From a virus (taxonomy: Duplodnaviria > Caudoviricetes), in IMG/VR virus record IMGVR_UViG_3300045303_000084, positions 1 to 60,237 of that record: 60,237 nucleotides of DNA. One strand, 5' to 3'. This document shows positions 7,197-55,804 of the stretch, piece by piece; the stretch's first letter is position 1, and every line of letters begins with the position of its first letter. Both the position numbers and the translations under genes were made by a program. A model generated the notes under the pieces. It saw only the letters and a program-made list of their open reading frames with translations, was not told the DNA's origin and did no database searches.

Positions 7197-7585
7197 TGGT
7201 CGCCGTCTCGATCAAAATGACCGGCTATGTTCAGGTGCTCGACAAAGTCAAGTTGTTGGGCGCTGGCGCCGAGGCTGTGAACGGTCCGATTGCCTCGTTT
7301 GGCTCGCGTCTAAGTTACGCTCGGTTCATCGAGACGGGGCGTTCCAGCCGACCGCAAGTTCGCCGCGCCGGTCCCGCGCGGATGTTCGAGTTGGGCGTAG
7401 CCGAGGCGGCGAAGCAAGCGCCTGCCCTCCTGGCACCGGCTATCCCGCGAGGTCCCGCCGCTGTGGGAGCCGCAAAAAGGCGCATTCGAGACATTGGGCT
7501 AGAAAGGATTCGGGCACTTACTCCCGTACGTAGCGGGAAGCTTAGGGCAAGTGTCAGCGAGTTGAATCGGCCGGGAATTGGGTGA
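7196..7585 (+). CDS. Tail completion/neck protein (HK97 gp10-like)
   Basis: YARFIETG and TPVRSGKLRAS motifs typical of gp10-like proteins. Confidence 0.6.
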   Translation: MVAVSIKMTGYVQVLDKVKLLGAGAEAVNGPIASFGSRLSYARFIETGRSSRPQVRRAGPARMFELGVAEAAKQAPALLAPAIPRGPAAVGAAKRRIRDIGLERIRALTPVRSGKLRASVSELNRPGIG

Positions 7586-7590
7586 TGGCG

Positions 7591-8265
7591 TCACGTCCAT
7601 CCCTTGCCGGTCACGATCAGGGAGATCGTCGCTTGCGACACGTTGAACTGTGCAGCAAGAGCCTTCTGGGAGACGGTGCCGTTCGCGTACAGCGTACGGA
7701 TCAGGATGGCTTGATCGCGATTCAGTCGGGCGTGGGGCCGGCGGGTTCGTACATCTGGATCGGCAGTGTACCCACCGCCTCTACCGATCAGGCCACGCAT
7801 CTTGGCTGCCATGTCGGCCTGATTGGCAGCGATCGCTCCGAGCCAGAGATGACCGTGCCGTTCGTACTCGATGCCATTGACAACATAGACGCCGGTGTCG
7901 TCGTGACGGACGCATCGTCGCACATCGCAAGTATGGCCGACGATCAGCCCAAGTGGTGGCGTCAATCCAGTTGCACGATACCATGCGATGTGATGGGCGA
8001 GAACATCGCCGGCCCGATAGTCTGCGGGATTGGGCAAGACACCGTAACCCTTCGCTTGCGTCCTACCCGGCCAGAGACGGCATTCTCCGTCAACGATCAG
8101 ACTCTCCCAGACTGTTGGACCGCTCCATCGACCACGCCCGCGAGAGTCGAGATAGCAGGCGCGGTTGTGAAATCGACCACGGCCAATGCTGATCGCATAA
8201 GCGCTGGCGAGGAATCCATTCCCGCACCATTCGCAGACGCGGGGGATGGTACCCTTGTTGGGCAT
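7591..8265 (-). CDS. HNH homing endonuclease (Zn-ribbon + HNH_3-type + C-terminal HTH)
   Basis: CEWCG N-terminus, CRLWPG..GYG..AHHIAW..VGHTCDVRRCV..HLWLG..NQADM, C-terminal SQKALAAQFNVSQATIS. Confidence 0.85.
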   Translation of the reverse strand: MPNKGTIPRVCEWCGNGFLASAYAISIGRGRFHNRACYLDSRGRGRWSGPTVWESLIVDGECRLWPGRTQAKGYGVLPNPADYRAGDVLAHHIAWYRATGLTPPLGLIVGHTCDVRRCVRHDDTGVYVVNGIEYERHGHLWLGAIAANQADMAAKMRGLIGRGGGYTADPDVRTRRPHARLNRDQAILIRTLYANGTVSQKALAAQFNVSQATISLIVTGKGWT

Positions 8266-8344
8266 CAGGCTCACCCCCTGGTGTCAGGCCCCGGGTGTTG
8301 CAAGCACGCCGGGGTCACTTCGTGTCTAGATTTTACCATGCCTG
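8234..8344. repeat. 111-bp exact direct repeat, copy 1 (cassette leader + first codons)
   Basis: Identical to 11652..11762 on base-by-base comparison. Confidence 0.95.
8266..8340 (-). promoter_or_regulatory. Endonuclease-cassette leader
   Basis: TGGTAAAAT-ctagACACGAAGTG-aCCCCGGCGTG-cttgcaa-CACCCGGGG-ccTGACACC-AGGGGG..ATG. Confidence 0.8.
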
Positions 8345-8365
8345 CGCATCTGGTCGGGGGCTCTG

Positions 8366-8827
8366 ATGTCTGGCTTTGACGTGGAAGCCGCACTCAATGG
8401 TCTGAAAGACCTTGTCAGCACGATTCCATCAATCGAGTCGTGTCAGATCGGCGCGCCCGAATCACTGTCGAACCGAATCAGCGCGTGGGTCGTCGTCGGC
8501 GATCCGGGGGAAATCGGATCGCGCGTTCAGGGGGTCTACGAGTTAGACCTGTCGCTGATCGTGTTTTTTGCATATGTCGTGGAAGGCCAGGAATCCGCCA
8601 GCGAAGCACAGTTGGGGGATTACATCACCGAACTCGTCCGACGATTGATCAAAAACCGAGCCGGCGCCGTCGACGGAGTCAGCAGAAACCTCAACGGTTC
8701 GGTAGACATTCTCGGCCTGCCTCAAGCAGCAGCAGGACCGGCGGATTACGCGGTCTATGCCGGCGCCGAGGGGAGGACATATCCTGTCGGCGTCAGAGTC
8801 GTGCAGCGCGAAAACCTTGGAGTCTAG
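8366..8827 (+). CDS. Tail terminator protein
   Basis: 153 aa, position between gp10-like gene and tail tube. Confidence 0.6.
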   Translation: MSGFDVEAALNGLKDLVSTIPSIESCQIGAPESLSNRISAWVVVGDPGEIGSRVQGVYELDLSLIVFFAYVVEGQESASEAQLGDYITELVRRLIKNRAGAVDGVSRNLNGSVDILGLPQAAAGPADYAVYAGAEGRTYPVGVRVVQRENLGV

Positions 8828-8836
8828 GAGGACATC

Positions 8837-9145
8837 ATGCCCCGCGAGAAGTTGATGGCGAACTACCTTGGCGAGATGGGCGAGCATTACATGGGCATCC
8901 CCGCCTGTGACCTGTACGAAACGCAGTGGAACGCGCTCTCCGACGAGCAGAAGGCGCTCGTTGGCGAGTCGGCGTTCTACCGCGTCCGTCCGGCCGCTGA
9001 GGAGGACGTAGAGGCCGCTGCCAAGCACGTCGAGAAGGCTGAGCCGGTCAACCCGATGGCTGAGCAGGCCAAGGCTGAGATGCCGGCGCCGCCTGCGCCG
9101 AAGGACGAGCCGAAGCCGGCGCCGAAGGCCGAGGCGAAGAAGTAA
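8837..9145 (+). CDS. Hypothetical protein
   Basis: SD GGAGG; GIPACDL...W motif; Pro/Ala/Lys tail. Confidence 0.6.
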   Translation: MPREKLMANYLGEMGEHYMGIPACDLYETQWNALSDEQKALVGESAFYRVRPAAEEDVEAAAKHVEKAEPVNPMAEQAKAEMPAPPAPKDEPKPAPKAEAKK

Positions 9146-9554: not shown

Positions 9555-9649
9555 CTGCATAGGCCACTACTCCCGATCACCGGGGGTACCGCCCGAACCC
9601 GTGAGTCACGCGCCCAACAGCGCCCGCTCGCTAACAAGCGAGCGTCGCT

Positions 9650-10981
9650 ATGGCCGCGAACGATCAAGGGCAGCTCTGGTCGGGCACACTTCAGATCGGC
9701 AAAGAGACGGTGGCCGGAACCGCCGTCGCCGCAACGCGGAAGCTCTACACCCGTGAGCCCGCGCTGACGGTTGAGCGCGATCCGCGCGTACACCGCTTCG
9801 CCACCACAACCCGCGACAACGTCCGCGCCTACACCAATGGCCCGGTCATGGCCGGCGGTTCGCTCTCGATGCCGATGAGCGCGGACGAAATCATCGAGAT
9901 GCTGCTGATTGGCGTTCAGGGGTCGGTCACGCCGACCACGCCAGCGGGTGACACGCTGGGACGGCTGTGGACGTTCAAGCCGGCCGGCGCCCTCGACTCG
10001 GCCACGCTCGAATGGGCAGATGGCGCGCGAACGTGGGTCGGTCCCGGTTTCAAGGGTAACTCGCTCACGATCACGGGTGCTGCCAACGAGGCGAATGACC
10101 TGTCCATTGATCTGTTCGGCAACGATGTCGTAGCAGGCTCACTGACGGGCGCGCTCTCCGAACGGGTGCCGACGTTCTTTGAGGGCTGGCAGACGCGGAT
10201 GTACATCGATCCGTTCACGGGCACGCCGGGGACGACCCCGATTCCGGGCGTTCTGCGCAACTGGACCGTCACGATCAACAACAACCTGGCGCGCGTCTAC
10301 ACCGCCGACCTCACGCTGGCGGCGAACCGCATCACGTCTGGCGAGTTGGACATGACGGCGCAGTTGACCTTTGACGCCTACCAGTCGCGCTCGTTGACCG
10401 AGTTCAACAACTGGGCGGCTGGCACACAGCGGATGGTCCGTCTTGAATTCATGGGGCCGGCTGACGAGATCGAGGCCGGTGCCAACGAGGTGCAGACCCT
10501 CACCGCGACTGGCACCCCGACCGGCGGATCGGCCACCGTCAACATTCTCGGCCAGGATGCCGTGATCGTGTTCAACAGCACGAATGCCCAGGCCCAGACA
10601 TCGATCAATGCGGCGCTTGCCGTGCTCGGGACCGGGCATACCGTCACCGTGACGGGTGGCCCCTGGCCGGGTACTGCGCTGACGGTCACGTTCACCGGCA
10701 GTCAGGTCAGCGGACGTGACATCGCGCAGGCGACGCTGACCACCAACGCCTTTACTGGCGGCACCACACCGGGCGTCACGTTCGGCACGACCACGCCAGG
10801 GCGCAACGGTCGCAAGTACGTGGCGATCGACTTGCCCGGCGCGTGGACTGCCGTGAACCTCGGCGGCTCGGCGGATGGTGTGCGGACGTACGAATTTTCC
10901 CTGCAACCAATTTATCAGACCACGCTGGCGTCAATGGGGCAGATCCTCTGCCACAACGCGCGGACGACGGCGTACGCCTAA
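9650..10981 (+). CDS. Major tail tube protein with inserted Ig-like domain
   Basis: Thr/Gly-rich 443 aa, LQIGKETVAGTAVAAT tube N-terminus, internal NEVQTLTATGTPTGG module. Confidence 0.75.
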   Translation: MAANDQGQLWSGTLQIGKETVAGTAVAATRKLYTREPALTVERDPRVHRFATTTRDNVRAYTNGPVMAGGSLSMPMSADEIIEMLLIGVQGSVTPTTPAGDTLGRLWTFKPAGALDSATLEWADGARTWVGPGFKGNSLTITGAANEANDLSIDLFGNDVVAGSLTGALSERVPTFFEGWQTRMYIDPFTGTPGTTPIPGVLRNWTVTINNNLARVYTADLTLAANRITSGELDMTAQLTFDAYQSRSLTEFNNWAAGTQRMVRLEFMGPADEIEAGANEVQTLTATGTPTGGSATVNILGQDAVIVFNSTNAQAQTSINAALAVLGTGHTVTVTGGPWPGTALTVTFTGSQVSGRDIAQATLTTNAFTGGTTPGVTFGTTTPGRNGRKYVAIDLPGAWTAVNLGGSADGVRTYEFSLQPIYQTTLASMGQILCHNARTTAYA

Positions 10982-10987
10982 GCATTC

Positions 10988-11017
10988 GGCCCGGGGTCAC
11001 TGACCCCGGGCCTTTCT
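10988..11017 (+). terminator. Intrinsic terminator after tail tube
   Basis: GGCCCGGGGTCA-c-TGACCCCGGGCC followed by TTTCT. Confidence 0.7.
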
Positions 11018-11035
11018 CGGAGGCTCAGCGTGACA

Positions 11036-11683
11036 TCAATCGACAGCAAAGGGCAGCAGTCGTTCCCGCGCGGCGCGGGCGACTTCGGCGGCCTCATGCT
11101 CCGATGCGAACACGCCGAGGTAGTGATTGACTCCCGCACTCTTGACGTACGCCATCCATTTCTGAGTCTTCTTGTGCCACGACACGCCACGGTGCGCAGA
11201 CGACGTGGCGTGGTAACTAGGTTTGTTCTGCGCGTTAGCACCTGTCGCCTTCCTATGAACACGCAGATTCGTTCGGCGGCAGTTCAGACGGTTCCGATCG
11301 ATATGGTCGACCTCCATCCCGTCGCCTTCGGTCAGTCCACAGAGATACCGATGCAGACGGATGCGGTGGTCGCGCCCGTCAATGCGTTTTGTCATGACCG
11401 CGTATCCCTTGCTCAGATGCCAGCGGTACTGACCAACGTCCTCGACGTCGTCGGCATCCACGATAGCGTTCGCGCGGACCATCCCGTGGCGATCGAAAAG
11501 CGGTACGTAGGCCGTGGTGCCATCGGCACTCAGGAGGGCACCGGACGGTGGACGACGATGAGCAAGGCTACGGCAAACGTTGGAGCAGTACAGCGCGCGT
11601 CCAACGTTGACTTGCCCGACCAGTGCCAAGAAATCGGCACCGCATTGCTGACAGACGCGGGGGATGGTACCCTTGTTGGGCAT
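11036..11683 (-). CDS. HNH-AP2 homing endonuclease with N-terminal Zn ribbon
   Basis: RLHRYL..EVDHIDRNRLNCRRTNLR HNH; SSAHRGVSWHKKTQKWMAY..YLGVF.SEHEAA AP2 domain. Confidence 0.9.
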   Translation of the reverse strand: MPNKGTIPRVCQQCGADFLALVGQVNVGRALYCSNVCRSLAHRRPPSGALLSADGTTAYVPLFDRHGMVRANAIVDADDVEDVGQYRWHLSKGYAVMTKRIDGRDHRIRLHRYLCGLTEGDGMEVDHIDRNRLNCRRTNLRVHRKATGANAQNKPSYHATSSAHRGVSWHKKTQKWMAYVKSAGVNHYLGVFASEHEAAEVARAARERLLPFAVD

Positions 11684-11762
11684 CAGGCTCACCCCCTGGT
11701 GTCAGGCCCCGGGTGTTGCAAGCACGCCGGGGTCACTTCGTGTCTAGATTTTACCATGCCTG
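11652..11762. repeat. 111-bp exact direct repeat, copy 2 (contains cassette leader 11684..11758)
   Basis: Identical to 8234..8344. Confidence 0.95.
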
Positions 11763-11782
11763 ACCAGATCAGAGAGGACGCC

Positions 11783-12226
11783 ATGAGCATAGATATTGGC
11801 CCCCCGGGGTATCAGCGAGCGAATGGAACTGCGGTGCCATCAGACGTGTCCGACCCACGCGGAAAACGCATAGCTAATAGGTGCCCCTGGCTCGATCTGC
11901 CGGAGCCGTTCGACAACCTGCGCGTCCGTTGTTGGCTTGACTATCCGCAGGACATCGCGGAGATGCTGACGGCCGAACCGGACGAGACGCCGGAGCAGGC
12001 GTCTGCACGGGTGATGGAGTTCCTGAAGGGGGTCATCCTGCAGCACGACGGCTGGGAGGCTGACGACAACGAGGGGCCGCTCCAGCAGCCCGATACTGAT
12101 GACTTTTGGCGACGCATCCCGACGCCGCTCGGCCGTGCGATCTCGGAGCGGTTCTTCGAGGAGTTGCAGGGAAACGCATCCCGCGCCTCACGCCGCAGGA
12201 AGTTCAAGACCTCTCGACGGCGCTGA
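11783..12226 (+). CDS. Tail assembly chaperone (gpG-like)
   Basis: SD GAGGA, between tube and tape measure, slippery site near its 3' end. Confidence 0.75.
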   Translation: MSIDIGPPGYQRANGTAVPSDVSDPRGKRIANRCPWLDLPEPFDNLRVRCWLDYPQDIAEMLTAEPDETPEQASARVMEFLKGVILQHDGWEADDNEGPLQQPDTDDFWRRIPTPLGRAISERFFEELQGNASRASRRRKFKTSRRR

Positions 12227-20176: not shown

Positions 20177-21063
20177 TGGTCGTCATGTTGCCTAGCGTTG
20201 TCTCCAGCGGCACCATTGAATATCGATGGGTCGACCCGGCCGGTGTCACGAGAGAGCTGCTTCCGAGCAGCGCCGTGAGCGTGCTGGTTGGCGAACGAGG
20301 ATTAGGTATTCCCGGCTTCGACCTGATGGAAGATAAACTTCCGAGCAACCCAGGCACCGTCCTTCGGCACGCCGCAACATCTTCTCGGGTCATTCAATTG
20401 CCGATCATCTGCGAGGCCGGCAGTCCGTCCACTTTGGAGGCACTGATGGACAGTGTCTATACGTGGTTCGCGACAGCCGACGAACGCGCTCGTACGCCGG
20501 GTTATCTCCATGTCACCCGTGCTGATGGCACGACGCGGCGCATTCGCTGTTACTATCGCGGCGGACTGGAAGGCGATCTGTCGTCGTCCGTGAGCGGAAC
20601 GAACTGGCGCCATGCCACGGTCACCCTGGTGGCACCGGGCGCGTACGCCGAGGATGCCGACCCCGAGGTGCATACCTACACACAGCCGGATTTTGGTGTT
20701 TCCCTTTCGATCATCAACACCGGCCAGTTGCCGGCCGCGCCAATCTGGACGCTCACTGGCCCGATGAACATGCTTTCAATCTACAACAACACGACCGGCG
20801 AGGCCATTGCGCTGACCTCAGACGGTGGCATCAACATCACAGCCGGAGATACGGTTGTTATCGATACGAGGCCGGCTGACGAGCGCGTGGGGTATCAGGT
20901 CCAGGACAGTGGAGGTAATAGTCTCTTCGCCAAGCTGACCGATGTCTCGACACTCTGGCACTTCCAGCCGGGGCTGAACCAGTTCGCATTCGGTCTTGCC
21001 GGGACGACCGTCCAGACGGAAATTGAGCTAACCTATTACGCGCCCTATCGGGGGATACGGTAA
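20176..21063 (+). CDS. Distal tail protein (Dit)
   Basis: INTGQLPAAPIWTLTGP...LWHFQPGLN motifs typical of Dit. Confidence 0.75.
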   Translation: MVVMLPSVVSSGTIEYRWVDPAGVTRELLPSSAVSVLVGERGLGIPGFDLMEDKLPSNPGTVLRHAATSSRVIQLPIICEAGSPSTLEALMDSVYTWFATADERARTPGYLHVTRADGTTRRIRCYYRGGLEGDLSSSVSGTNWRHATVTLVAPGAYAEDADPEVHTYTQPDFGVSLSIINTGQLPAAPIWTLTGPMNMLSIYNNTTGEAIALTSDGGINITAGDTVVIDTRPADERVGYQVQDSGGNSLFAKLTDVSTLWHFQPGLNQFAFGLAGTTVQTEIELTYYAPYRGIR

Positions 21064-22643
21064 TGCCGGCGATTATGCCCAACTACCGCGTCTATGTTCG
21101 CGGCAGCGATTATCGCCGGCATGCGGAACTCTTTGACTGGGAACACCTTCAACTCAAGATCCGTTTCAACGAGGTTGGTACGTGGGCGCTGCGCATGAAT
21201 CGGAGCAGCCCTGAAGCAGCACTGATGGTGCGTCAGGCCGGCATCATCGTTACCCGCGATGACGAGACGATCTTCTCCGGTCAAGCATCAACCGAGTGGA
21301 CCCGCACCGGCACCACGCTGAGTGTCGCGGGCGTGGACGATATGGCGATCCTGGAGACACCGGCGCGCCCGGTGCCGGCCCAGGCGACGGGACCGTATGC
21401 GACACAGTTTGATACGCGGACGGGTGTCGCCAGTACCATCATGACCGCGTTTGTGTCCGATCAGGTTGGCACGACCGCGCCGTTTGGCTGGCGTATCGGC
21501 GCTATGAACATGACGGCTGATCCAGCCCTCGGATCGTCCGGGACATTCCAGGCCGAATGGGGTAAGCCGCTGATCGAGGTGCTTGGGCCATTCGCGGCCT
21601 CACCCGTGGCCGGTGGGCTCCGATTCGTCGTCCTCCAGAATGACCTAATTCCGAACACCATCACGTTCAAAGTTATGGACGTTGCCGACCTAACGCACGT
21701 TGCGAAGTTCTCGATTGCACTTGACACGGTGAAGGATTTTGAGGATACCTGGAAGTTTCCGGGCGCAAACTATGTGATGGTGGCCGGTGGCGACGCGCTT
21801 GGTGTCGATCGTACGGTAGTCGAGGGATCGAATAGCACCAGCGTTGCCGAAGTAGGGCGACGTATCGTCCAGTGGATCGATGCACGACACCTGACCACGG
21901 TCGCGCAGTTGAACCAACGGCGTGACGAGGCACTAGCAACGCTGGTGACATCTCGTCAGGTCAAGGTGACGCCGTTCAACAACCAATCGCTCGTGTTTGG
22001 CGTCCACTATGACATTGGTGACCTTGTGACGTTCGTTCTTGATGATGAGGTCTTCAACGACGTGATCCGCGAGGTAACACTCACCCTTGACCCAGAGGGA
22101 GGGGCAACGGCCGTGCCGATGCTCGGCAACACCGGCACGTCATCGGATGATCGTCTCGTCCAGCACATGAAGACGGTCGCCGCCCGTGTCAATCGTCTGG
22201 AGCGGTACTACGCGATGCCGGATGGCGCGATCCTGGCGCCGATGCTCGGGACGGGTGCGGTGGGCTCGACTGCGCTGGCGTCCGGCGCTGCTGCTGCTAA
22301 TCTTGGCTCCGGCAGCGTCAGCTCCTCGATGCTGGCTGCCGGCGCTGCCGTGTCGAATATCGGGTACACACCGGCCCGGGTATCTGCGAGTAGCTACACC
22401 GGGGACAACGCTGCGACGCGCACAATCAGCGTGGGATTCACGCCGATCTGGGTCCAGGTCACCTCGCCCGGCAACAGCGCAACGCTCTATCTGGGCGACG
22501 GGACGCGGCTGGTTCTGGAGGCCAGCGGCGATGTGATTGCCGGGCAGAGCGGCGGATTCGTCGCTGGTGGCTTCACCGCCCGTCATGACGGCAACAGCAA
22601 CAACGCGAGCGGCGTCACGTACTACTACACCGCGATTGGATGA
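21063..22643 (+). CDS. Baseplate hub / minor tail protein (ReqiPepy6 gp37-like)
   Basis: RFNEVGTWAL, NYVMVAGG, FGVHYDIGDLVT motifs; follows Dit. Confidence 0.75.
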   Translation: MPAIMPNYRVYVRGSDYRRHAELFDWEHLQLKIRFNEVGTWALRMNRSSPEAALMVRQAGIIVTRDDETIFSGQASTEWTRTGTTLSVAGVDDMAILETPARPVPAQATGPYATQFDTRTGVASTIMTAFVSDQVGTTAPFGWRIGAMNMTADPALGSSGTFQAEWGKPLIEVLGPFAASPVAGGLRFVVLQNDLIPNTITFKVMDVADLTHVAKFSIALDTVKDFEDTWKFPGANYVMVAGGDALGVDRTVVEGSNSTSVAEVGRRIVQWIDARHLTTVAQLNQRRDEALATLVTSRQVKVTPFNNQSLVFGVHYDIGDLVTFVLDDEVFNDVIREVTLTLDPEGGATAVPMLGNTGTSSDDRLVQHMKTVAARVNRLERYYAMPDGAILAPMLGTGAVGSTALASGAAAANLGSGSVSSSMLAAGAAVSNIGYTPARVSASSYTGDNAATRTISVGFTPIWVQVTSPGNSATLYLGDGTRLVLEASGDVIAGQSGGFVAGGFTARHDGNSNNASGVTYYYTAIG

Positions 22644-22726
22644 CCATAGTGGACTACCGCCATGCTGGTATGGGATGGAGTAACGGCCCGATCGAGGGCG
22701 GAAACAGCCGCATCCTCTCGCTGCCG
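22640..22726 (+). pseudogene. Remnant N-terminus of endolysin (MTIVDYRHAGMGW...ILSLP)
   Basis: ATGA-coupled; resembles MKHAGIHF...ILGMP at 23328; frame stays open to 23317. Confidence 0.55.
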
Positions 22727-23257
22727 TCACGAGTTGTGCCCCCACCATTTGCCTCGGCCCTTTGCTCTCATATCGGCTTGATTGGCTGCTGGTGTTCCAA
22801 GCCAGAGATGCCCGCGCCGTTCATAGGCCACGCCTTCAACGACATAGGTGCCGGCGGTGTCGTTACGGACACAGGCCGGATTATCTCCACCGGGGCAGTC
22901 GTGACAGACATACTCCCAGCGCGTTGGCCAGTGGCCCGTCGCAAGAAACCACGCTGCTTTAGACATCGTGGTCGACGTTTTTACTCCGTCCGGACGGACC
23001 GCGATGATGACGCCATAACCGAATGCGTGATGGCCGCCCGTTGCCACCCAGCAAGAGTGTGTCTTCTTGACACGTGGCCAGAATCGGTCCGGAAGTGGCG
23101 ACAATACGTGATCTCGCGACCGCTGCTCTGCCGAGCACGCAAACGAGCAGAATTTGACATTGCGATCGCTTCTCAGGCGAGTGGGGCCGCCGCAGACGAG
23201 GCACGTTCCCGTACCAATGTAGTTGCAGTACCGGCGCGTGGTACGATCGGGATGCAT
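22727..23257 (-). CDS. HNH homing endonuclease (Zn-ribbon + HNH_3-type)
   Basis: CLVCG..FCSFAC; RFWPRV..CWV.TG..GYG..VCHDCPGGDNPACV..HLWLGT..NQADM. Confidence 0.85.
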   Translation of the reverse strand: MHPDRTTRRYCNYIGTGTCLVCGGPTRLRSDRNVKFCSFACSAEQRSRDHVLSPLPDRFWPRVKKTHSCWVATGGHHAFGYGVIIAVRPDGVKTSTTMSKAAWFLATGHWPTRWEYVCHDCPGGDNPACVRNDTAGTYVVEGVAYERRGHLWLGTPAANQADMRAKGRGKWWGHNS

Positions 23258-23330
23258 CTGGTCACTCCAGGTGTCAGCCCCCGGCGGTGGCGACCGTGCG
23301 GGGGCACTTCGTGTTGAGAATTATACCATG
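23258..23330 (-). promoter_or_regulatory. Endonuclease-cassette leader
   Basis: TGGTATAAT-tctcaACACGAAGTG-CCCCCG...CGGGGG-cTGACACC-tGGAG..ATG. Confidence 0.8.
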
Positions 23331-33702: not shown

Positions 33703-34496
33703 GCGTCACATCTTGCCAGCAGTGCAGCGGCGAGATTGTGCGCCGGGGGTCAAAGGCCGGCCGGTTTTGCTCGCTTGATTGCAAGGGCTCCTGGCAGCGG
33801 ACTCGGAAACCCGTTGACCGTGAATGGCTGTATCAGCGGTACGTCGTGGACGGATGGAGTACCTATCGGATTGGGCGCGATGTCGGGCGCGATCCGAAGC
33901 GAGTGTATGAGTGGCTGACTGATTTCGGGATTCCTACGCGGAAACGCGGTTGGCGAACAGACGCGGATTCTAGCGCGCTGAGTGATCCTGAATGGCTTCA
34001 GCGTGAGTATGTCGAGAAGCAACGCTCAACAGGCGAGATCGGCCGCGAACTCGGGATGACTGATGCGAACGTCATCCATTTCTTGCGCAAGCACGGCATA
34101 CGACGGCGAACGACCAGTGAGGCTCGCGCCGTCAAGCATTGGGGATCATCTGGCGACAAGAACCCGATGTACGGCAAGCGTGGCGCGGCGGTTCCGAGTT
34201 GGAAGGGCGGCGTTACCCCACTCCGTCAAGCCTTCTATAGCTCGCCGGAGTGGAAGGTAGCCGCGCAATCCGTCTGGCAACGGGACCAAGGTATTTGTCG
34301 TCGCTGTGAAGCTAAGGCTAAAGAGCGAGGCACCTTCCATATCCACCACATCGTTTCGTTCGCGATACGGGCGCTGCGGACCGAGCTGTCGAACCTTGCT
34401 TTGTTGTGCAACACCTGTCACCGATGGGTGCATAGCAAGAAGAACGTTGATCGTCTCTTCCTTGGGGAGTGGCGTGAGGAAGGGGGTGAAGGATGA
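33699..34496 (+). CDS. HNH endonuclease (Zn-ribbon + tandem HTH + HNH)
   Basis: CQQC..FCSLDC; two WL...YV...ST..I...G repeats; RD..CRRC...HIHHI...NLALLCNTCH; no cassette leader. Confidence 0.85.
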   Translation: MSVTSCQQCSGEIVRRGSKAGRFCSLDCKGSWQRTRKPVDREWLYQRYVVDGWSTYRIGRDVGRDPKRVYEWLTDFGIPTRKRGWRTDADSSALSDPEWLQREYVEKQRSTGEIGRELGMTDANVIHFLRKHGIRRRTTSEARAVKHWGSSGDKNPMYGKRGAAVPSWKGGVTPLRQAFYSSPEWKVAAQSVWQRDQGICRRCEAKAKERGTFHIHHIVSFAIRALRTELSNLALLCNTCHRWVHSKKNVDRLFLGEWREEGGEG

Positions 34497-43774: not shown

Positions 43775-44218
43775 ATGGAGAGTTGTGAATCAATGGCGGG
43801 GCTGTTTCGCGGAAAAGTCAAAGAAGGCCGGGCACGAAAAACGTCTAGGCGCCGTCGTCACAGTGCGCTCTACACGTCGTACATGCAGTCCGAAGCGTGG
43901 AAGGCGCTACGGCAAACCATGATCGACATCACGGGGTGCTGCGAGCGTTGTGAACTTACGGACGAAGTCACCATGTTAGAGGTTCACCATCTGACGTATG
44001 AGCGTCTCGGGCACGAGGATCTCGATGACCTTCAGGTGCTCTGTCCGCCGTGTCACGTCATTGCCGATGCCGAGCGCGCGCAGGAAACACAGAACGACTT
44101 GGAGTTCCGGCGGCTTGATGGGTGGGCGACGAAGGTATACGGCCCGGACTGGGAAAACGATCCGGGATACGCGGACGCCGAGGAAGCCTTCGAAGAATGG
44201 CTGGAGAGCCGTTCATGA
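43775..44218 (+). CDS. HNH endonuclease
   Basis: YMQSEAW..LR...CERC...LEVHHLTYERLGHE...DLQVLCPPCH. Confidence 0.8.
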   Translation: MESCESMAGLFRGKVKEGRARKTSRRRRHSALYTSYMQSEAWKALRQTMIDITGCCERCELTDEVTMLEVHHLTYERLGHEDLDDLQVLCPPCHVIADAERAQETQNDLEFRRLDGWATKVYGPDWENDPGYADAEEAFEEWLESRS

Positions 44219-45572: not shown

Positions 45573-45573
45573 C

Positions 45574-49002: not shown

Positions 49003-49036
49003 GCCTACAAGCGGTCCTGTCGCGCTACCCAGAATA

Positions 49037-49115
49037 TGGTAAAATTGTCGCAGTAATGCCGGGCGCTGTTGTAGCAGCCCCGGCCCGAACTAGCCTGTTG
49101 TGGAGGCCAGTTGCG
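49037..49115 (+). promoter_or_regulatory. Endonuclease-cassette leader (sense orientation, more diverged)
   Basis: TGGTAAAAT...GCCGGGCGCTG-ttgtag-CAGCCCCGGC...GGAGG..GTG. Confidence 0.65.
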
Positions 49116-49763
49116 GTGAGTGTACCACCGACTGGGCGAGCGTGCGTTGCTTGCGGTGAATGGAAGTCAGCCGAGCACTTCTACGGACATAAGCGGGGTA
49201 TCAACGGACTCACAGGTCGTTGTAAGTCCTGCTACCGAGTATACCAGCAGGCTTGGCGTGAAAATAACGCCGCGCTGATGCGAGAGCGCACAAGAGCATA
49301 CAACCGGCGACATCGAGCCAAAAATCCTCGTTTGGCTGTTCAGCGGGCTCAGGCATACCGAGCCGCGAACTACGTTACGGTGATGGCTCGCGAAGCTCGT
49401 TTCCGAGAAGAGAATCGGGAGCGTTTGTTAGCTCGCCGCCGCGAGTTGAGGCAGCAGGCGCGGGAACGCTACACCGCGTATCACTACGCCTGGATCGCTC
49501 GCCGGAAGGCGAATGGCGGATCGTTTACGTCGGAAGAATGGGCGAGGCTTTGCAGCTTCTACGGCGGAAGGTGTCTCGCCTGTGGCCGTGTCGCGAAACT
49601 GACGGTTGACCATGTTGTGCCGGTATCGCGTGGCGGCTCGGACGACATCAGCAATCTTCAACCGCTCTGTGGCCCGTGCAATTCCCGAAAGGGGAACCGG
49701 CGGATTATCGACTACCGTCCGTTCTCGTCACTGCTCGACGGGAGTTGTATGTGTCTGTCCTGA
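49116..49763 (+). CDS. HNH homing endonuclease
   Basis: CVACGEWK...F...CKSC; CLACG..LTVDHVVPVSRGGSDDISNLQPLCGPCNSRKG. Confidence 0.85.
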   Translation: MSVPPTGRACVACGEWKSAEHFYGHKRGINGLTGRCKSCYRVYQQAWRENNAALMRERTRAYNRRHRAKNPRLAVQRAQAYRAANYVTVMAREARFREENRERLLARRRELRQQARERYTAYHYAWIARRKANGGSFTSEEWARLCSFYGGRCLACGRVAKLTVDHVVPVSRGGSDDISNLQPLCGPCNSRKGNRRIIDYRPFSSLLDGSCMCLS

Positions 49764-52632: not shown

Positions 52633-53364
52633 GTGGCTGACTTCACGACGATGCGTTTTGAACTGAATACTAACTCCAACGCTTCGCCAACATGGACGAC
52701 AGTGCCGGCGTCTGGCTCGGGTACTGGTCAGGAGTTGCGGTTCTCTGATGTCAGCACGGCGGGCTCTACCGCTTCTGCGTCGTGGCCATTTGTAACGCGC
52801 CCGACTTCGGGCACCGCCGGCGTTGACTACCTCTACGTCTTCACGGCTGACACGACCTCGCTGGGGTCTATTGGTGGCGGCACATCAACGCCGGCCGCGT
52901 TCTCGAACGCAAACTATCTGGAGTTCCGGCTCTGGTGGGACAACGTCGGGACGTTCGCCAGCGCGCCGATCTACACGGCGTACCCGACGACTGCCCACGG
53001 CTCGGTGACGCGCGGCGACGGCTCGCTACTCGGCGGCCATGCCACGGATACCGGTGGTACGGCGCGCTCCTACCTCAAGGGCGCAATGTTCGGCCGGGTG
53101 GTATCGGCTGGCGCACCGGCCGCCGCTGTCGGCTCAGCCCCGACCGTGACCGATGGGACGACTGGAGCGGTTAGCCCGACCGCCGGCGCGAACTGGAGCA
53201 CGTACCAGGGGCTTCAAGGCGATAACGATTACCTTCAATTCCCATCGACCCCGGCAGCGACCACGCAGGATCAGCTAAATCTGATGATCCGTCTTTTCAC
53301 TGGTGCGAATATGAGTCCAGGCACTCACACGCCAGTGGTGAGCGTGAAGTACACCTGGACGTAG
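52633..53364 (+). CDS. Putative virion structural protein (Thr/Gly/Ser-rich, beta)
   Basis: SD GGAGGT; ends VKYTWT, similar to the end of 56898..57347 (VTFTWTE). Confidence 0.55.
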   Translation: MADFTTMRFELNTNSNASPTWTTVPASGSGTGQELRFSDVSTAGSTASASWPFVTRPTSGTAGVDYLYVFTADTTSLGSIGGGTSTPAAFSNANYLEFRLWWDNVGTFASAPIYTAYPTTAHGSVTRGDGSLLGGHATDTGGTARSYLKGAMFGRVVSAGAPAAAVGSAPTVTDGTTGAVSPTAGANWSTYQGLQGDNDYLQFPSTPAATTQDQLNLMIRLFTGANMSPGTHTPVVSVKYTWT

Positions 53365-53374
53365 TTTGCAAAGA

Positions 53375-54121
53375 TTACACAGATGGCTTTTGAGGCAGTC
53401 CGCGATGATTGAGCGCGCGAATCTCAGCGATAAGCGGTACGCGAGCGGCGAGGGTTTCGTCGCTGACCCATCGTGGGGCTTTGCCTCCGCGCGTGTATCC
53501 GAGGTCGCTGAGAGCCAGCACGATCTCTGCTTGCCGATGCTTGATCTTCAAGTACGGCAGGAGTCTTCGGCAGAGACGGACTGCTTCGGTGCCACCCGCA
53601 TACCAGTTCTGCACTGGCTTGTGGATACCCGGGCGAACGGCTCTCGGAGCGGTCAGGTATCCGCCGAACGTCTTTGCTACCCACTGCATAACGGGCTCGT
53701 AGGTATTCGCCATCATCAGTCGGCAGTGCATGCTCTCGTTCCCGGTGCTCGGGCTCGTCGTCATGCGGACAGTAATGGTGCCCTCGCCATCGATCAGGCC
53801 GGCGAAGTAGATGAGATCGCGCTCGTCGTCTGGAATGATGACCGGGACGTTTTCTGCGGCGCTCTTGCACTCGAAGCTACAGAACCGTTGCGGCTTGGCC
53901 GCGTTCGGTGCGTGCGGCCGGAACTCGGCGCCGCATTGCTCGCAGGGCATGACGACGGTGTGTCCTGTCCCCTTGAGCGGCGACGGACGGCCCTTGCTGC
54001 CGACACCACGGCATGTCGCGGAGCAGTAGCGGACGGCTCGTTGCTTGACGCGGAACGGCTCAACGAGGAACTCGGAGCCGCAGACCTCGCATGTGCGGGG
54101 CATGGTACGCTTTTGGGGCAT
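53375..54121 (-). CDS. LAGLIDADG homing endonuclease with two N-terminal Zn ribbons
   Basis: YFAGLIDGEGTI motif; LLPYLKIKHRQA...IRALN; CEVCG..YCS.TC and CEQCG..FCSFEC. Confidence 0.9.
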   Translation of the reverse strand: MPQKRTMPRTCEVCGSEFLVEPFRVKQRAVRYCSATCRGVGSKGRPSPLKGTGHTVVMPCEQCGAEFRPHAPNAAKPQRFCSFECKSAAENVPVIIPDDERDLIYFAGLIDGEGTITVRMTTSPSTGNESMHCRLMMANTYEPVMQWVAKTFGGYLTAPRAVRPGIHKPVQNWYAGGTEAVRLCRRLLPYLKIKHRQAEIVLALSDLGYTRGGKAPRWVSDETLAARVPLIAEIRALNHRGLPQKPSV

Positions 54122-54200
54122 CAGATCCTCCAACGGTCTGGTGTCACGCCCCGGGCTGTTTCTACCAGCGCCGGGGCTTCATCGTGCCTGAAGTATACCG
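54122..54200 (-). promoter_or_regulatory. Endonuclease-cassette leader
   Basis: CGGTATACT-tcagGCACGAtgaa-GCCCCGGCGCTG-gtagaaa-CAGCCCGGGGC-gTGACACC...GGAGG..ATG. Confidence 0.8.
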
Positions 54201-54220
54201 TCTACCAGGAGGGATGACCG

Positions 54221-54475
54221 ATGCCAAAGAAAGACGATGCGCCCGAGCTGACCGTCTGCGACGGCTGCGGGATGGAGCGCGACGACGTGAACGGCGACGG
54301 CTACTGCCCGGCCTGTGCTGAGCGCCGCGCCGATGATCCACAGGTCACGGTGCAGGGTCGCGCGCTGACCGTCTCCGAACTGGAGATGCAGGCCGAGGAC
54401 GACGAGCACCTGGCAGCAGCGCTCAAAGGCGATAGCGTGCAGGATCAGATCAAGGTGGCAAAGGCGGATCGGTGA
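54221..54475 (+). CDS. Small Zn-binding protein
   Basis: SD AGGAGG; CDGCG...YCPAC. Confidence 0.55.
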   Translation: MPKKDDAPELTVCDGCGMERDDVNGDGYCPACAERRADDPQVTVQGRALTVSELEMQAEDDEHLAAALKGDSVQDQIKVAKADR

Positions 54476-54690
54476 ACGAGATGGGTCAGTGTCGGGATTG
54501 CCGCTGGTGGGAAGTTTCCGCGCAGGAGCAGGATAGCGGTAAGCGATTCTGTGGCCTGGCTACCAGTGACGATGGCGTGGCGCTCCATACGGAAACACCG
54601 TTTTGGGCAGTAGCAACAGATGGCGGCGAGGCGGTCGTCTTTACGAGTCCAGACTTCGGCTGCGTCCAGTTCGAGAGGAAAGAATCGTGA
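54472..54690 (+). CDS. Small Cys-rich protein
   Basis: CRDCRWW...C...TSPDFGCVQF. Confidence 0.55.
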   Translation: MNEMGQCRDCRWWEVSAQEQDSGKRFCGLATSDDGVALHTETPFWAVATDGGEAVVFTSPDFGCVQFERKES

Positions 54691-54770
54691 GCGCCGTTGC
54701 CGATGTCCTCAAGACGATGGACCCGGCCGCCCTGCGCGCCCGTGTGACAGGTCGGCCGTGGTGGCGGGTG
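54687..54770 (+). pseudogene. Remnant N-terminus of the gene now starting at 55379
   Basis: MSAVADVLKTMDPAALRARVTGRPWWRV aligns with MNVARMLIPLEMHARLKGRSYWRM. Confidence 0.65.
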
Positions 54771-55301
54771 TCAGTCATCATCGCCAACGACATCGACGTA
54801 GCGATGCTCGAATTTGGGTCCATAGCGCCAAGTTTGCCGGTGTCGCTCCGGGTCTGTCCGGGCGAAGTGTCGATCTCCCGTAGGCAAGCGTCCTCGCTCA
54901 GAAGCGTCAGCCATGTTGTCAGCCTGGGTGCCGAGCGAGAGATGCCGAATGTTGCAACACGGGGGATTGTCGCACGCATGCCGGACCTTCAATCCGGGAG
55001 GAATCGGACCGTACGACAACTCCCAAGCCACTCGGTGAGCCTTAGCAGGCCGGCTATTGACGCTGACCTGTCCGTAGCCTCGCCCATCGGTCGCCCCGAT
55101 CCATACGTGGCACTCATTGGGCGTTCCGAGTCGCACCTTGTCCCAGAACCGATCTGCAATAGGGACTCGGCGGCTCGAATGGAGACTGTCGCGGCAGCCC
55201 AGACTGCAAACCTTGCCTCGATTTCCACGAATTCTCGACGGTGTCGTGGTGAAGGTAGATCCGCAGTATGCGCAGTCTCGCGTGATAGGATTTGGACGCA
55301 T
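54771..55301 (-). CDS. HNH homing endonuclease (Zn-ribbon + HNH_3-type)
   Basis: CAYCG..VCSLGC; RFWDKV..CHVWIG..GYG..KAHRVAW..VRHACDNPPCCNIRHLSLGTQADNMAD. Confidence 0.9.
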   Translation of the reverse strand: MRPNPITRDCAYCGSTFTTTPSRIRGNRGKVCSLGCRDSLHSSRRVPIADRFWDKVRLGTPNECHVWIGATDGRGYGQVSVNSRPAKAHRVAWELSYGPIPPGLKVRHACDNPPCCNIRHLSLGTQADNMADASERGRLPTGDRHFARTDPERHRQTWRYGPKFEHRYVDVVGDDD

Positions 55302-55381
55302 CGGAAGTACATCCCTTCTGGTGCCACGTCCCCGGCAGTTCGCGCTGCGCGGGGGCTCTCTTGTGCCGGAATTATACCATG
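55302..55381 (-). promoter_or_regulatory. Endonuclease-cassette leader
   Basis: TGGTATAAT-tccgGCACAAgagag-CCCCCGCGCAG-cgcgaa-CTGCCGGGG-acgTGGCACC-agaAGGGA..ATG. Confidence 0.8.
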
Positions 55382-55804
55382 AATGTCGCGCGTATGCTGA
55401 TTCCACTCGAAATGCACGCTCGTCTGAAGGGGCGTTCCTATTGGCGTATGCGCTTCATCGACGGTCGCACGATTGATGAGCGTGACGTGGACTGGAGTCT
55501 CGCGCCGCAACGAGGGAGGATGGCCCTGCAACTGGTCTGCCCGGATGGTCAAATTGCTCAGGTCGGGAATACACAAGACTCGACGGGAAGACTTTTCCAA
55601 CTGAAAGCCGGCGCACTGACCGGCTCGACGCGGAGCACTGACGCGCACCTGATCGGGATCGTGCATGGCACGGACGGGCAGGCGACGGTCGCTGCCTGGG
55701 AGTACGGCCCGAAGCGGCTCGTGACATTTGAGGACAACGTGTGGAATGTTCGATACCGGGGCATCGGGCGCCTGAATTTCGATGTTCTCGGGATCAGGGG
55801 GTAA
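55379..55804 (+). CDS. Hypothetical protein
   Basis: ATG embedded in the cassette's -10 extension. Confidence 0.6.
   Translation: MNVARMLIPLEMHARLKGRSYWRMRFIDGRTIDERDVDWSLAPQRGRMALQLVCPDGQIAQVGNTQDSTGRLFQLKAGALTGSTRSTDAHLIGIVHGTDGQATVAAWEYGPKRLVTFEDNVWNVRYRGIGRLNFDVLGIRG

Follow-up and report, generated by a model that had tools for sequence, protein, structure and literature searches.

Organization of the Endonuclease Cassettes

The window analyzed, a stretch of 60,237 nt, belongs to a soil phage record (IMGVR_UViG_3300045303_000084) with a GC content of 63%. According to Pfam and PHROGs, its plus-strand operons contain six homing endonuclease gene (HEG) cassettes on the minus strand, c1 to c6. 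Three HNH genes on the plus strand were used as internal controls.

5057..5587, minus strand: c1 HEG, HNH type, 176 codons (PHROGs phrog_2340 endonuclease, E 2e-19)
7591..8265, minus strand: c2 HEG, HNH_3 with C-terminal helix-turn-helix, 224 codons (Pfam PF13392, E 1.1e-5; PHROGs phrog_826)
11036..11683, minus strand: c3 HEG, HNH_3 with AP2 domain, 215 codons (Pfam PF13392, E 6.5e-8; PF00847, E 1.5e-6)
22727..23257, minus strand: c4 HEG, HNH type, 176 codons (PHROGs phrog_1872, E 6.6e-9)
53375..54121, minus strand: c5 HEG, LAGLIDADG type with N-terminal Cys-rich part, 248 codons (PHROGs phrog_5046, E 2.7e-24)
54771..55301, minus strand: c6 HEG, HNH_3, 176 codons (Pfam PF13392, E 3.1e-15; PHROGs phrog_1872, E 1.3e-34)
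33636..34496, plus strand: forward HNH gene (PHROGs phrog_8446, E 2.9e-31)
43775..44218, plus strand: forward HNH gene (PHROGs phrog_144, E 6.1e-12)
49035..49763, plus strand: forward HNH cassette, gene from GTG 49116

The c5 protein also gives a weak match to Pfam PF00961, a family present in its distant homologues. A common 5' module, recognized by alignment, box scan and single folds, precedes the HEG in all cassettes.

23255..23330, minus strand: 5' module of c4, with TGGTATAAT as extended -10-like box, 5' GC hairpin, TGACACC, Shine-Dalgarno and ATG
5585-5667, 8263-8340, 11681-11758, 54119-54202 and 55299-55381, minus strand: other copies of the module, located by alignment and box scan
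49035-49118, plus strand: forward copy, ahead of the HNH gene from GTG 49116, with box, hairpin and Shine-Dalgarno as in the reverse cassettes

The box scan found two minus-strand copies of CATGGTATAAT, at 23320-23330 and 55371-55381, and variants with one mismatch at 5657, 8330 and 11748. A more diverged copy at 54192 was located by alignment and string search. Judged from its sequence, this box may act as a promoter.

Open Frames Bridging the Cassettes

On the plus strand, each cassette is crossed by an open reading frame, here called the bridge.

5033..5680, plus strand: c1 bridge, stop at 5678-5680, 1 nt before ATG 5682
7582..8379, plus strand: c2 bridge, 265 codons, GTGA/TGATG overlap with the stop of 7196..7585
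10988..11017, plus strand: GC hairpin followed by TTTCT, directly 3' of the stop of the 443-codon gene 9650..10981
11030..12226, plus strand: c3 bridge, GTG 11030 after GGAGG at 11019-11023
22640..23317, plus strand: c4 bridge, 225 codons, start overlapping the stop of the minor tail gene 21063..22643 as ATGA
53366..54217, plus strand: c5 bridge, 283 codons, TTG start
54603..55382, plus strand: c6 bridge, opening at TTG 54603

All six had been proposed in the initial annotation and, apart from small corrections, they are present as described. In every case the frame is the codon register of the minus-strand gene, also as proposed. It is open over five cassettes and contains a single TAG in the sixth. 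This TAG, at 5285-5287 in c1, had been noted, as had the end of the c1 bridge 1 nt before the next ATG, and both were found again. The c1 bridge starts at ATG 5033, after GGAGAG and 10 nt past the upstream stop, and a restart is available beyond the TAG at ATG 5303. The gene at ATG 5682 has its own AGGAG.

The c2 bridge begins with a GTG overlapping the upstream TGA (7583-7585), with an in-frame ATG at 7585. Its coordinates hold, and it reaches 14 nt, not 13 nt as first given, into the gene starting at 8366, which has a G-run ahead of its start. At c3, the bridge starts 48 nt past the upstream stop, with its GGAGG. As no stop occurs in frame, it enters the downstream gene, and the reported fusion to what had been named a tail chaperone is thus correct. 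In-frame ATGs occur at 11756 (within the box) and 11783 (after GAGAGGA). The hairpin at 10988..11017, read from the sequence, precedes the start of the c3 bridge and resembles a partial terminator; it is absent from the list of the consensus terminator scan.

The c4 bridge has the ATGA-coupled start ascribed to it and stops 10 nt before ATG 23328 of the endolysin ORF. Likewise, the c5 bridge starts with TTG 1 nt past the stop of 52633..53364 and ends 3 nt before ATG 54221, whose gene has its own AGGAGGG. For c6, the start at 54687 had to be revised, being an internal in-frame GTG of an ORF that opens at TTG 54603. The overlaps reported for c6 stand: GTG 54687 shares a GTGA with the stop of 54472..54690, and the bridge stop (55380-55382) overlaps ATG 55379 as ATGA. 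The plus-strand ATGs 23328 and 55379 do lie inside the box, with no GGAGG-like sequence upstream.

The ends of the bridges were compared with those of 45 other non-gene plus-strand ORFs of at least 100 codons, scoring starts within -4 to +1 nt of a gene stop and stops within -14 to +10 nt of a gene start. Both ends abut neighboring genes in four of the six bridges and in one of the 45 controls (Fisher P 2.9e-4). The claimed coincidence of the ends therefore stands. A strict reading as translational coupling is weakened by the c1 stop, the 48-nt gap at c3 and the strong Shine-Dalgarno sequences, because of which the genes downstream of c1 and c5 need no coupling.

Depletion of Antisense Stop Codons

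On the operon strand, the codons TTA, CTA and TCA become TAA, TAG and TGA when read in the codon-aligned frame, and the initial annotation had proposed their depletion as a test. The result favours its reading. By codon count, the c1 HEG has a single CTA, read on the plus strand as the TAG at 5285-5287, and no such codon occurs in c2 (224 codons), c3 (215), c4 (176), c5 (248) or c6 (176). This single occurrence in 1215 codons compares with 21.1 expected from the position-specific composition of these genes themselves (Poisson P 1.6e-8), and with 11.1 (P 1.9e-4) if synonymous codons were used as in the 71 other genes, which hold 154 in 14530 codons. The three forward HEGs, of similar GC3, have 10 in 648 codons vs 11.9 expected (3 in 215 for the gene from GTG 49116, 3 in 286 for 33636..34496 and 4 in 147 for 43775..44218), and differ from the reverse HEGs with a Fisher P of 1.9e-4. 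The remaining two antisense frames of the reverse HEGs show no depletion, with 36.2 and 33.7 stops per 1000 codons. A-ending codons make up 13.7% of codons in the reverse HEGs vs 10.1% in the other genes. The bridge pattern exceeds chance.

Related Endonucleases in Other Phages

The HNH_3 relatives of c6 comprised 217 distinct genes from three collections. Their orientation was called with a simple longest-ORF rule, by which 135 of the 217 loci were classed as mixed. In the 35 loci antisense to both flanks, 56 antisense-stop codons were observed vs 163.1 expected (ratio 0.34; none in 17 of 35), compared with 190 vs 219.2 (ratio 0.87; none in 6 of 47) in the 47 co-oriented loci (Mann-Whitney P 6e-5). 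The ratios per collection were 0.27, 0.27 and 0.55 for antisense and 0.87, 0.93 and 0.82 for co-oriented genes, and the other antisense frames did not differ between the two classes. As a check on orientation, 32 flank ORFs from 13 HNH_3 loci were compared with PHROGs; 17 of them, spread over 11 loci, are known phage genes on the opposite strand. Where the bridge is fully open, the downstream start lies at most 4 nt from the bridge stop in 9 of 16 loci (0.15 under a shifted-position null). At least one stop is present in 18 of the 34 evaluated antisense loci, a few of them at the expected number.

The LAGLIDADG relatives of c5 come from low-GC phages (mean GC3 0.32) and are not intergenic but lodged within a split major-head gene. 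The 37 antisense loci have 72 antisense-stop codons vs 257.1 expected (0.28; none in 19), and the eight co-oriented loci have 53 vs 50.9 (1.04; P 6e-5 for the contrast). High GC is thus not the cause of the depletion. The contrast persists when the proteins are clustered at 70% or 50% identity; five loci have 9-13 such codons each. The bridges often stop 100-150 nt short of the next start, and three of the ten loci examined have a bridge fused to the C-terminal half of the major-head gene. At the codon level, TTA, CTA and TCA are all reduced among the relatives and TTG, CTT and TCT increased, with CCA, ACA and GCA unchanged. No depletion was seen in 11 annotated co-oriented HEGs of cultured phages (63 vs 56.6 expected). 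The depletion is specific to HEGs lying backwards in an operon, in this genome and in two HEG families elsewhere.

A Possible Role for the Bridges

Selection that keeps the operon-strand frame open is well supported, since the depletion is orientation-specific and the bridge ends coincide with neighboring genes. Its most likely cause would be a need to keep ribosomes moving over the insert, which would spare the genes downstream. The explanation given in the initial annotation, ribosome traffic that prevents polarity, is partly supported. Each cassette would be a free-standing HEG that inserted in reverse orientation into a plus-strand phage operon, importing its own promoter-like box, 5' hairpin leader and ribosome-binding site. 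Purifying selection would then purge TTA, CTA and TCA, with synonymous codons taking their place, so that the operon mRNA would carry a stop-free bridge of 225-400 codons across each insert, beginning at or just past the stop of the upstream gene and finishing at or near the start of the next one. Ribosomes arriving from the upstream gene, or loaded at an adjacent Shine-Dalgarno, would translate a functionless peptide over the insert. This may spare 0.6-0.85 kb of operon mRNA from untranslated exposure to Rho-dependent termination and decay, and may deliver ribosomes for re-initiation downstream, where the starts at 23328 and 55379 have no Shine-Dalgarno of their own.

We consider this joint reading, with backward HEGs purged of antisense stops, ribosomes carried over the bridge and downstream genes spared, to be probable; read-through transcription, bridge translation and the benefit are its presumed parts. 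If true, the opening of the frame may explain how backward inserts avoid silencing downstream genes. Against it, the c1 bridge is interrupted by its TAG, and translation of the c3 bridge would add an N-terminal extension to the product of the next gene. The purine content of the plus strand across the cassettes is only slightly below that of other genes and gives no clear sign of a strong Rho-loading site.

Alternatively, the ribosomes might act at the RNA level by blocking the pairing of operon mRNA with complementary endonuclease mRNA from the cassette promoter, which would avoid cleavage of double-strand RNA or set the level of endonuclease expression. The strong-looking extended -10 box faces into the operon and the stable 5' hairpin is typical of long-lived mRNAs; as each cassette has both, sense and antisense RNAs would coexist. 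This explanation predicts a stop-free frame equally well, but not a bridge stop placed on the start of the next gene, and appears unlikely.

It is quite unlikely that the bridges are true coding genes antisense to the endonuclease with a function of their own, for example in endonuclease control. Their start/stop overlaps and the Shine-Dalgarno sequences before the c1, c3 and c6 bridge starts are gene-like, and the frame is open under selection. However, the six bridge products have no Pfam family match, and the one bridge compared with PHROGs, c3 as the whole ORF 11030-12223, has no match there either. The nuclease types opposite the bridges (HNH_3, HNH and LAGLIDADG) are unrelated, so one fold cannot be common to all bridge products. 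Their sequence is dictated by the opposite strand, c1 is interrupted and c3 merely extends the next gene.

The open frame could also be a legacy of insertion within host genes, letting the interrupted protein form with an insertion or extension, much as the same-strand ShiLan insertion in phage methylases leaves the host frame open (PMC11855218). The c3 bridge, in frame with the next gene from a native-looking GGAGG-GTG start, and the bridges of the LAGLIDADG relatives fused within the major-head gene would fit. Yet in five of the six cassettes the bridge is out of frame with the gene ahead of it at its start, and its stop falls short of, or only just within, a gene with a start of its own. 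Where HNH_3 loci were checked, the neighbors on either side are distinct genes of full length; a tail protein among them, for example, aligns from its residue 1 with profile position 1. For the cassettes described here, this origin is rather improbable.

Chance shadow ORFs, with neighbor matches picked post hoc, are extremely improbable, being contradicted by the depletion counts here and in the HNH_3 and LAGLIDADG relatives. GC-rich codon-aligned antisense frames are often open: in ordinary genes of this genome, stops are scarcest in the aligned antisense frame (10.6 per 1000 codons vs 24.7 and 37.2), and a few of those with 170-222 codons have no antisense stop. The "coupled" end was defined in several different ways in the initial annotation, and long antiparallel prokaryotic ORFs have been argued to be generally non-coding in a preprint (10.1101/724807). 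Such shadow ORFs likewise lie in codon register opposite a real gene that dictates their sequence, but they follow composition. Here, antisense-stop codons are about 20-fold rarer than composition predicts, the depletion is orientation-specific, forward HEGs of the same GC3 are undepleted, the orientation contrast recurs at GC3 near 0.3, and the placement of both ends is rarely matched by control ORFs.

Comparison with Known Systems

No description of a stop-free frame bridging antisense HEGs was found in searches of the literature, where the closest case is the same-strand ShiLan domain, a hidden out-of-frame HNH endonuclease inserted in actinophage DNA methylase genes (PMC11855218). There too, in phages of actinobacteria, a mobile HNH gene occupies a stretch free of stops in the frame of its host gene, so that translation of the host gene can continue across the insert. 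The ShiLan endonuclease shares the strand of its host gene but uses another frame, and its insert sits within a single gene. The endonucleases described here are instead encoded in codon register on the other strand, with five of the six inserts between genes and the bridge as a separate ORF. The words "antisense", "reverse", "opposite" and "complement" are absent from the text of PMC11855218.

The free-standing seg and mob HEGs of T4-type phages are likewise selfish nuclease genes located between genes; they have promoters of their own and need to suit the host expression programme. All T4 HEGs are co-oriented except segD, which is antisense to genes 23 and 24; overlapping stop/start arrangements have been noted, and the passages on T4 HEGs do not describe a stop-free complementary frame (PMC2988022). 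Unlike the cassettes here, segD shows no depletion (9 antisense-stop codons vs 9.0 expected). By its sequence, a hairpin resembling a terminator lies on one side of segD and TATAAATA, resembling a late promoter, on the other; the depletion rule is thus not universal.

The ATGA, GTGA and TGATG overlaps at bridge ends, here and in the relatives, resemble those of termination-reinitiation coupling (PMC6728339). In that system, both ORFs encode needed proteins, whereas the middle ORF proposed here would only carry ribosomes.

In phage Aeh1, mobE is reportedly co-oriented and itself translated, with no bridge frame involved. This gene within nrdA is mentioned as an example of genes in pieces by endonuclease insertion (PMC2988022). 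As in the cassettes here, a HEG interrupts an operon or gene with host function retained, and the LAGLIDADG relatives similarly split the major-head gene.

Reverse-Oriented Homing-Endonuclease Genes in the Window

The window is a whole virus record of 60237 bases, classed as linear, with an estimated completeness of 72% and a GC content of 63%. Its left part carries the scaffold and major head genes of a tailed-phage gene set, which also includes a 1700-codon tape measure gene, minor tail genes and an endolysin gene; the remainder holds replication genes, a terminase gene and a portal-sized ORF. The integrase sits within a leftward block, outside which nearly all genes lie on the plus strand. 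Six homing-endonuclease genes (HEGs), named c1 to c6, run backwards within the plus-strand operons, in cassettes with their own 5' module. Each cassette is crossed by a plus-strand ORF, the bridge, which is codon-aligned with the antisense HEG, and the bridges stop at or near the next start.

Homing-endonuclease genes of the window
5057-5587, minus strand: c1, PHROGs endonuclease family
7591-8265, minus strand: c2, Pfam HNH_3 and PHROGs endonuclease family
11036-11683, minus strand: c3, Pfam HNH_3 and AP2 domain (the PHROGs scan at c3 covered its plus-strand bridge ORF)
22727-23257, minus strand: c4, PHROGs endonuclease family
53375-54121, minus strand: c5, PHROGs; homologues with LAGLIDADG_1
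54771-55301, minus strand: c6, Pfam HNH_3 and PHROGs
33636-34496, plus strand: forward HNH gene
43775-44218, plus strand: forward HNH gene
box at 49035, GTG at 49116, plus strand: seventh cassette, forward, with a 5' module as in c1 to c6

Judged by these matches, all six reverse genes have a recognised homing-nuclease domain. The window gene list situates the cassettes between called genes, free of intron or intein, the position of c3 being ambiguous in that its frame runs on past the cassette into the gene that follows. Rfam gave no family at gathering score anywhere in the window and an antisense gene cannot be an intein, which rules out an intron- or intein-borne endonuclease. No close relative of the phage that might show empty sites or cassette boundaries was found by megablast of 7000-12500 against phage records. 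The 443-aa ORF (gene 9650..10981) had no tblastn match in phage records, and the minor tail protein had no relative among viral contigs.

Placement of the Bridge Ends

When re-read on the window sequence, the coordinates that the initial annotation had assigned to the six bridges all hold, apart from small corrections, and the bridge frame is indeed in the codon register of the minus-strand gene in 6/6 cassettes. The overlap of the c2 bridge with the next gene, reported as 13 nt, is actually 14 nt (8366-8379). The GTG proposed as start of the c6 bridge (54687) was picked because it overlaps the upstream stop, as it does, but the ORF opens earlier, at TTG 54603, and 54687 is internal. The single break described in the c1 frame was found again, as a TAG at 5285-5287; this interrupted bridge goes against the rule.

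Bridge starts overlap or follow the upstream stop, in the form ATGA, GTGA, TGATG, or a Shine-Dalgarno sequence with a start. Their placement was compared with that of 45 other plus-strand non-gene ORFs of at least 100 codons, using a home-made gene list to which 7196..7585 was added by hand. A start was counted as placed within -4..+1 nt of a gene stop, and a stop within -14..+10 nt of a gene start. Both ends are placed in 4/6 cassettes (c2, c4, c5 and c6) versus 1/45 controls (Fisher P 2.9e-4); the controls had a placed start in 8/45 cases and a placed stop in 7/45. These four bridges abut or overlap both neighbours, as a translationally coupled operon ORF does. The downstream end alone is placed in c1, and c3, which has no stop, has neither end placed.

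Strong Shine-Dalgarno sequences of their own precede the downstream starts of c1 (AGGAG) and c5 (AGGAGGG), and that of c2 has a G-run. As the initial annotation had it, the ATGs at 23328 and 55379 each fall within a box of the 5' module and have no Shine-Dalgarno-like sequence upstream; lacking one, they would be the best candidates for true dependence on coupling.

At c3, a terminator-like hairpin (10988-11012) and TTTCT directly follow the 443-codon gene 9650..10981. Then come GGAGG and GTG 11030, only 6 nt before the HEG stop codon, and the frame enters the next gene. The hairpin with TTTCT (10988-11017) resembles a partial terminator of a highly expressed tail gene, and c3 seems to have been inserted immediately after a native start. 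Consensus scans of 4900-12400 gave no promoter, and three terminator-like sites versus 4.0 expected.

Avoidance of Three Codons in the Reverse Genes

The codons TTA, CTA and TCA of an HEG are the stops TAA, TAG and TGA of the aligned antisense frame, that of the bridge. The initial annotation had suggested a test for their depletion, and depletion was found both in the window and in two families of relatives.

TTA, CTA and TCA codons in the genes of the window
71 other called genes: 14530 codons, 154 observed (10.6 per 1000)
Six reverse HEGs: 1215 codons, 1 observed; 21.1 expected from own composition, 11.1 from background synonymous usage
Three forward HEGs (GC3 0.60-0.66): 648 codons, 10 observed; 11.9 expected from own composition

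The deficit in the reverse HEGs is significant against their own position-specific base composition (Poisson P 1.6e-8) as well as against an expectation built from their Leu/Ser content and the synonymous codon usage of the other genes (Poisson P 1.9e-4). The forward HEGs, which have the same low GC3 and one of which has the same promoter module, differ from them (Fisher P 1.9e-4). The other two antisense frames of the reverse HEGs contain 36.2 and 33.7 stops per 1000 codons, not below ordinary genes. The depletion is thus confined to a single frame and a single orientation, and a compositional shadow ORF is ruled out by the observed and expected counts of both orientations. A-ending codons make up 13.7% in the reverse HEGs and 10.1% in ordinary genes; strand composition or mutation bias is rejected, since neither the other two antisense frames nor other A-ending codons show a change. 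This genome, with its six reverse and three forward cassettes side by side, forms an unusually clean natural control. The plus-strand C/G ratio is 0.89-1.05 over the cassettes versus 0.91 in other genes, a difference too small for an argument from Rho-loading composition, which was dropped.

Relatives of the Cassettes in Other Phages

The c6 protein was searched in viral, metagenome and genome contigs, giving 217 relatives after removal of identical genes. Orientation was called blind to the HEG from the two nearest long ORFs per side, with a GC3 filter added where GC was at least 0.55. Single-protein scans found no relatives of c5, which were reached only via an alignment of c5 with its homologues (80 viral loci, 76 distinct, mostly from low-GC phages), nor of c1 and c2, c1 having too few homologues. 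Seven loci of c3 relatives were fetched and six matched; all six have 6-12 antisense-stop codons, and most of the neighbouring ORFs appear to be co-oriented.

TTA, CTA and TCA codons in relatives of c6 (HNH_3) and c5 (LAGLIDADG)
HNH_3, antisense to both flanks: 35 loci, 56 observed, 163.1 expected, ratio 0.34, 17 loci with none
HNH_3, co-oriented: 47 loci, 190 observed, 219.2 expected, ratio 0.87, 6 loci with none
HNH_3, mixed or unclear: 135 loci, 431 observed, 593.1 expected, ratio 0.73, 23 loci with none
LAGLIDADG, antisense: 37 loci (mean GC3 0.32), 72 observed, 257.1 expected, ratio 0.28, 19 loci with none
LAGLIDADG, co-oriented: 8 loci, 53 observed, 50.9 expected, no stop-free locus

Antisense and co-oriented HNH_3 genes differ in their codon counts (Mann-Whitney P 6e-5) and in the number of stop-free genes (Fisher P 5e-4). 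The three collections gave ratios of 0.27, 0.27 and 0.55 for the antisense class and 0.87, 0.93 and 0.82 for the co-oriented one, and stop density in the remaining two antisense frames is about 30 per 1000 codons for either class. A PHROGs check of 13 antisense loci matched 17/32 flanking ORFs (11 loci) to known phage genes on the opposite strand; the flanking genes include those for major head, terminase, tail, endolysin and neck proteins. The bridge is fully open in 16/34 evaluable antisense loci. A downstream start lies at most 4 nt from the bridge stop in 9/16 of the open loci, versus 0.15 at shifted positions, and in 3/18 of the interrupted ones. In one locus (L041), the ATG of a downstream tail protein overlaps the bridge stop as ATGA, and the first residue of this protein aligns to position 1 of its PHROGs profile.

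The LAGLIDADG relatives show the same contrast (Mann-Whitney P 6e-5), with a bimodal antisense distribution in which 5 loci keep 9-13 such codons, as composition predicts. In both families, it survives single-linkage clustering at 70% or 50% protein identity (P 6e-5 to 5e-4); shared ancestry as its cause is rejected, since it persists at cluster level. TTA, CTA and TCA are all down in the antisense class, TTG, CTT and TCT are up, and CCA, ACA and GCA are unchanged, which is the pattern expected from synonymous replacement. The caveat of the initial annotation, that open frames opposite a gene are common at high GC, is removed as a cause because these low-GC relatives show the depletion too.

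A single major-head gene (phrog_1357), cut in two near profile position 131-137, accounts for the ORFs on either side of the endonuclease gene in 9/10 LAGLIDADG loci checked (15/22 ORFs matched), so that this lineage lies inside a gene and not between genes. Rfam detected no intron at gathering score (12 LAGLIDADG loci) or with the threshold relaxed to E 0.5 (10 of the 12). Three bridges are fused to the C-terminal half, and for most others a gap of 100-150 nt separates the bridge end from the next start; this set argues for an open frame under selection, not for tight coupling at the downstream end. The loci with the endonuclease gene antisense inside the major head gene are L263, L294, L302, L289, L311, L290, L307, L321 and L260. 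Annotated DNA methylase genes of Mycobacterium phage DotProduct and Gordonia phage Whitney also contain, on their coding strand, matches to the LAGLIDADG part of c5, a finding that recalls the hidden-endonuclease insertions described for methylases.

Exceptions and Annotated Controls

The only antisense HEG of phage T4 is segD (PMC2988022). This gene (L254, 106561-107232, between genes 23 and 24) has 9 antisense-stop codons versus 9.0 expected. Its neighbours seem to be separate units, because a terminator-like hairpin with a T-run is read just after gene 23 and a late-promoter-like TATAAATA before gene 24. It fits the model, yet shows that the rule is not universal. In 14 annotated named-phage regions from the protein searches, no cultured phage with an antisense-embedded relative was present; all matches run in the direction of their neighbours or stand at a unit boundary. 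Eleven co-oriented HEGs with clean annotation in these regions contain 63 of the three codons versus 56.6 expected.

Possible Role of the Bridges

A stop-free, codon-aligned frame on the operon strand is maintained by avoidance of three codons, across nuclease families and host GC contents, and almost certainly it is selection that keeps this frame open. The initial annotation had proposed that the cassettes preserve ribosome traffic and coupling, making insertion non-polar on the late operon. This interpretation is partly supported: the case for selection is strong, and ribosome traffic is its putative purpose. The operon transcript would read through the cassette and ribosomes would translate the bridge, which would protect the transcript from premature termination and decay and hand ribosomes to the next start. 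We consider such carriage of ribosomes over backwards HEG inserts the probable explanation as a whole. That the stop-free mirror frame is a general adaptation of backwards HEGs in phage operons or genes, sparing the operon from polarity through ribosome carriage on a junk ORF, is a reading toward which we lean only slightly.

A need to keep the operon mRNA from pairing with the endonuclease mRNA would equally predict an open frame, but not the placed bridge ends, and is an unlikely reason for it. A legacy of insertion into coding sequence agrees with c3 and with the capsid-gene LAGLIDADG lineage; the other five cassettes do not fit, making it a rather doubtful explanation. Neither is a functional bridge protein probable, as the nuclease folds mirrored by the bridges are unrelated to one another and none of the bridges has a Pfam match, nor does the one scanned with PHROGs (c3) have a match there. 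Chance shadow ORFs are excluded in practice.

A full-text literature search found no description of a stop-free frame opposite an antisense HEG. The nearest known case is the ShiLan insertion, in which a methylase gene with an open frame conceals an HNH gene read in another frame of the same strand (PMC11855218); that paper makes no mention of antisense arrangements. The likeness is limited to the open host-strand frame, and an insertion of this type does not apply to the window, whose endonucleases are encoded antisense to the operon in codon register, 5/6 of them between genes. A T4 review points out that antisense transcripts could arise from a backwards HEG, which also has to suit the host programme; the review's excerpts describe no stop-free complementary frame (PMC2988022). 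A 2026 paper on purine bias and premature termination offers a general argument that leaving a less purine-rich stretch untranslated could carry a risk (PMC13323073); the purine drop over the present cassettes is small.

The layout in the window would be a host-sparing arrangement of homing endonuclease genes. If the proposed role is true, it would be a third way, besides introns and inteins, for selfish HEGs to stay harmless, acting at translation, and would explain the persistence of backwards nuclease genes inside essential late operons. Selection would then act for translation as such, not for a protein, with three forbidden codons on one strand as its signature. A change silent for the endonuclease can put a stop in the bridge, making polarity, Rho action and termination-reinitiation testable in phage operons. 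In annotation, a gene caller may list the bridge while overlooking the endonuclease, or vice versa.

The 5' Module and Possible Exchange between Cassettes

All six cassettes have one 5' module in common on the minus strand. Its box, (C/G)ATGGTA(T/A)AAT, reads as an extended -10 element and by its consensus would have promoter activity; the c5 copy, GACGGTATACT, is more diverged. CAC(G/A)A follows about 6 nt beyond the box, then a GC hairpin of 9-13 pairs whose stem sequence varies between cassettes, and the module ends with TGACACC (diverged in c1 and c6), a Shine-Dalgarno sequence and ATG.

Leader hairpins predicted by single folds
5585-5667, minus strand
8263-8340, minus strand
23255-23330, minus strand
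54119-54202, minus strand
55299-55381, minus strand
49035-49118, plus strand: forward cassette

In each leader the hairpin occupies the same position, a few bases from the predicted 5' end. Owing to the differing stem sequences, no more than 5 pairs were recovered in a consensus fold of the six leaders, and the hairpin matched no Rfam family; it may stabilise the endonuclease mRNA. Its complement, on the operon strand, sits just 5' of the next gene's start.

A 111-nt stretch spanning box, leader and first codons is 100% identical between c2 and c3 (8234-8344 / 11652-11762), whose nuclease parts differ. A second stretch, of 123 nt near the 3' end, is common to c2 and c4 at 72% identity (7792-7914 / 22751-22873), and an N-terminal motif, MPxKxTxPRxCxxCG, precedes different nuclease domains in c2, c3 and c5. 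These shared parts suggest module shuffling or gene conversion between cassettes. Elsewhere in the window, at 57819-58897, a 65-nt unit recurs in twelve diverged copies, with a spacing of 90 nt or of multiples of 42 nt (42, 84, 126). They lie within a 520-codon ORF (57612..59174), which has no PHROGs match, and they suggest a protein built of 14-residue repeats.
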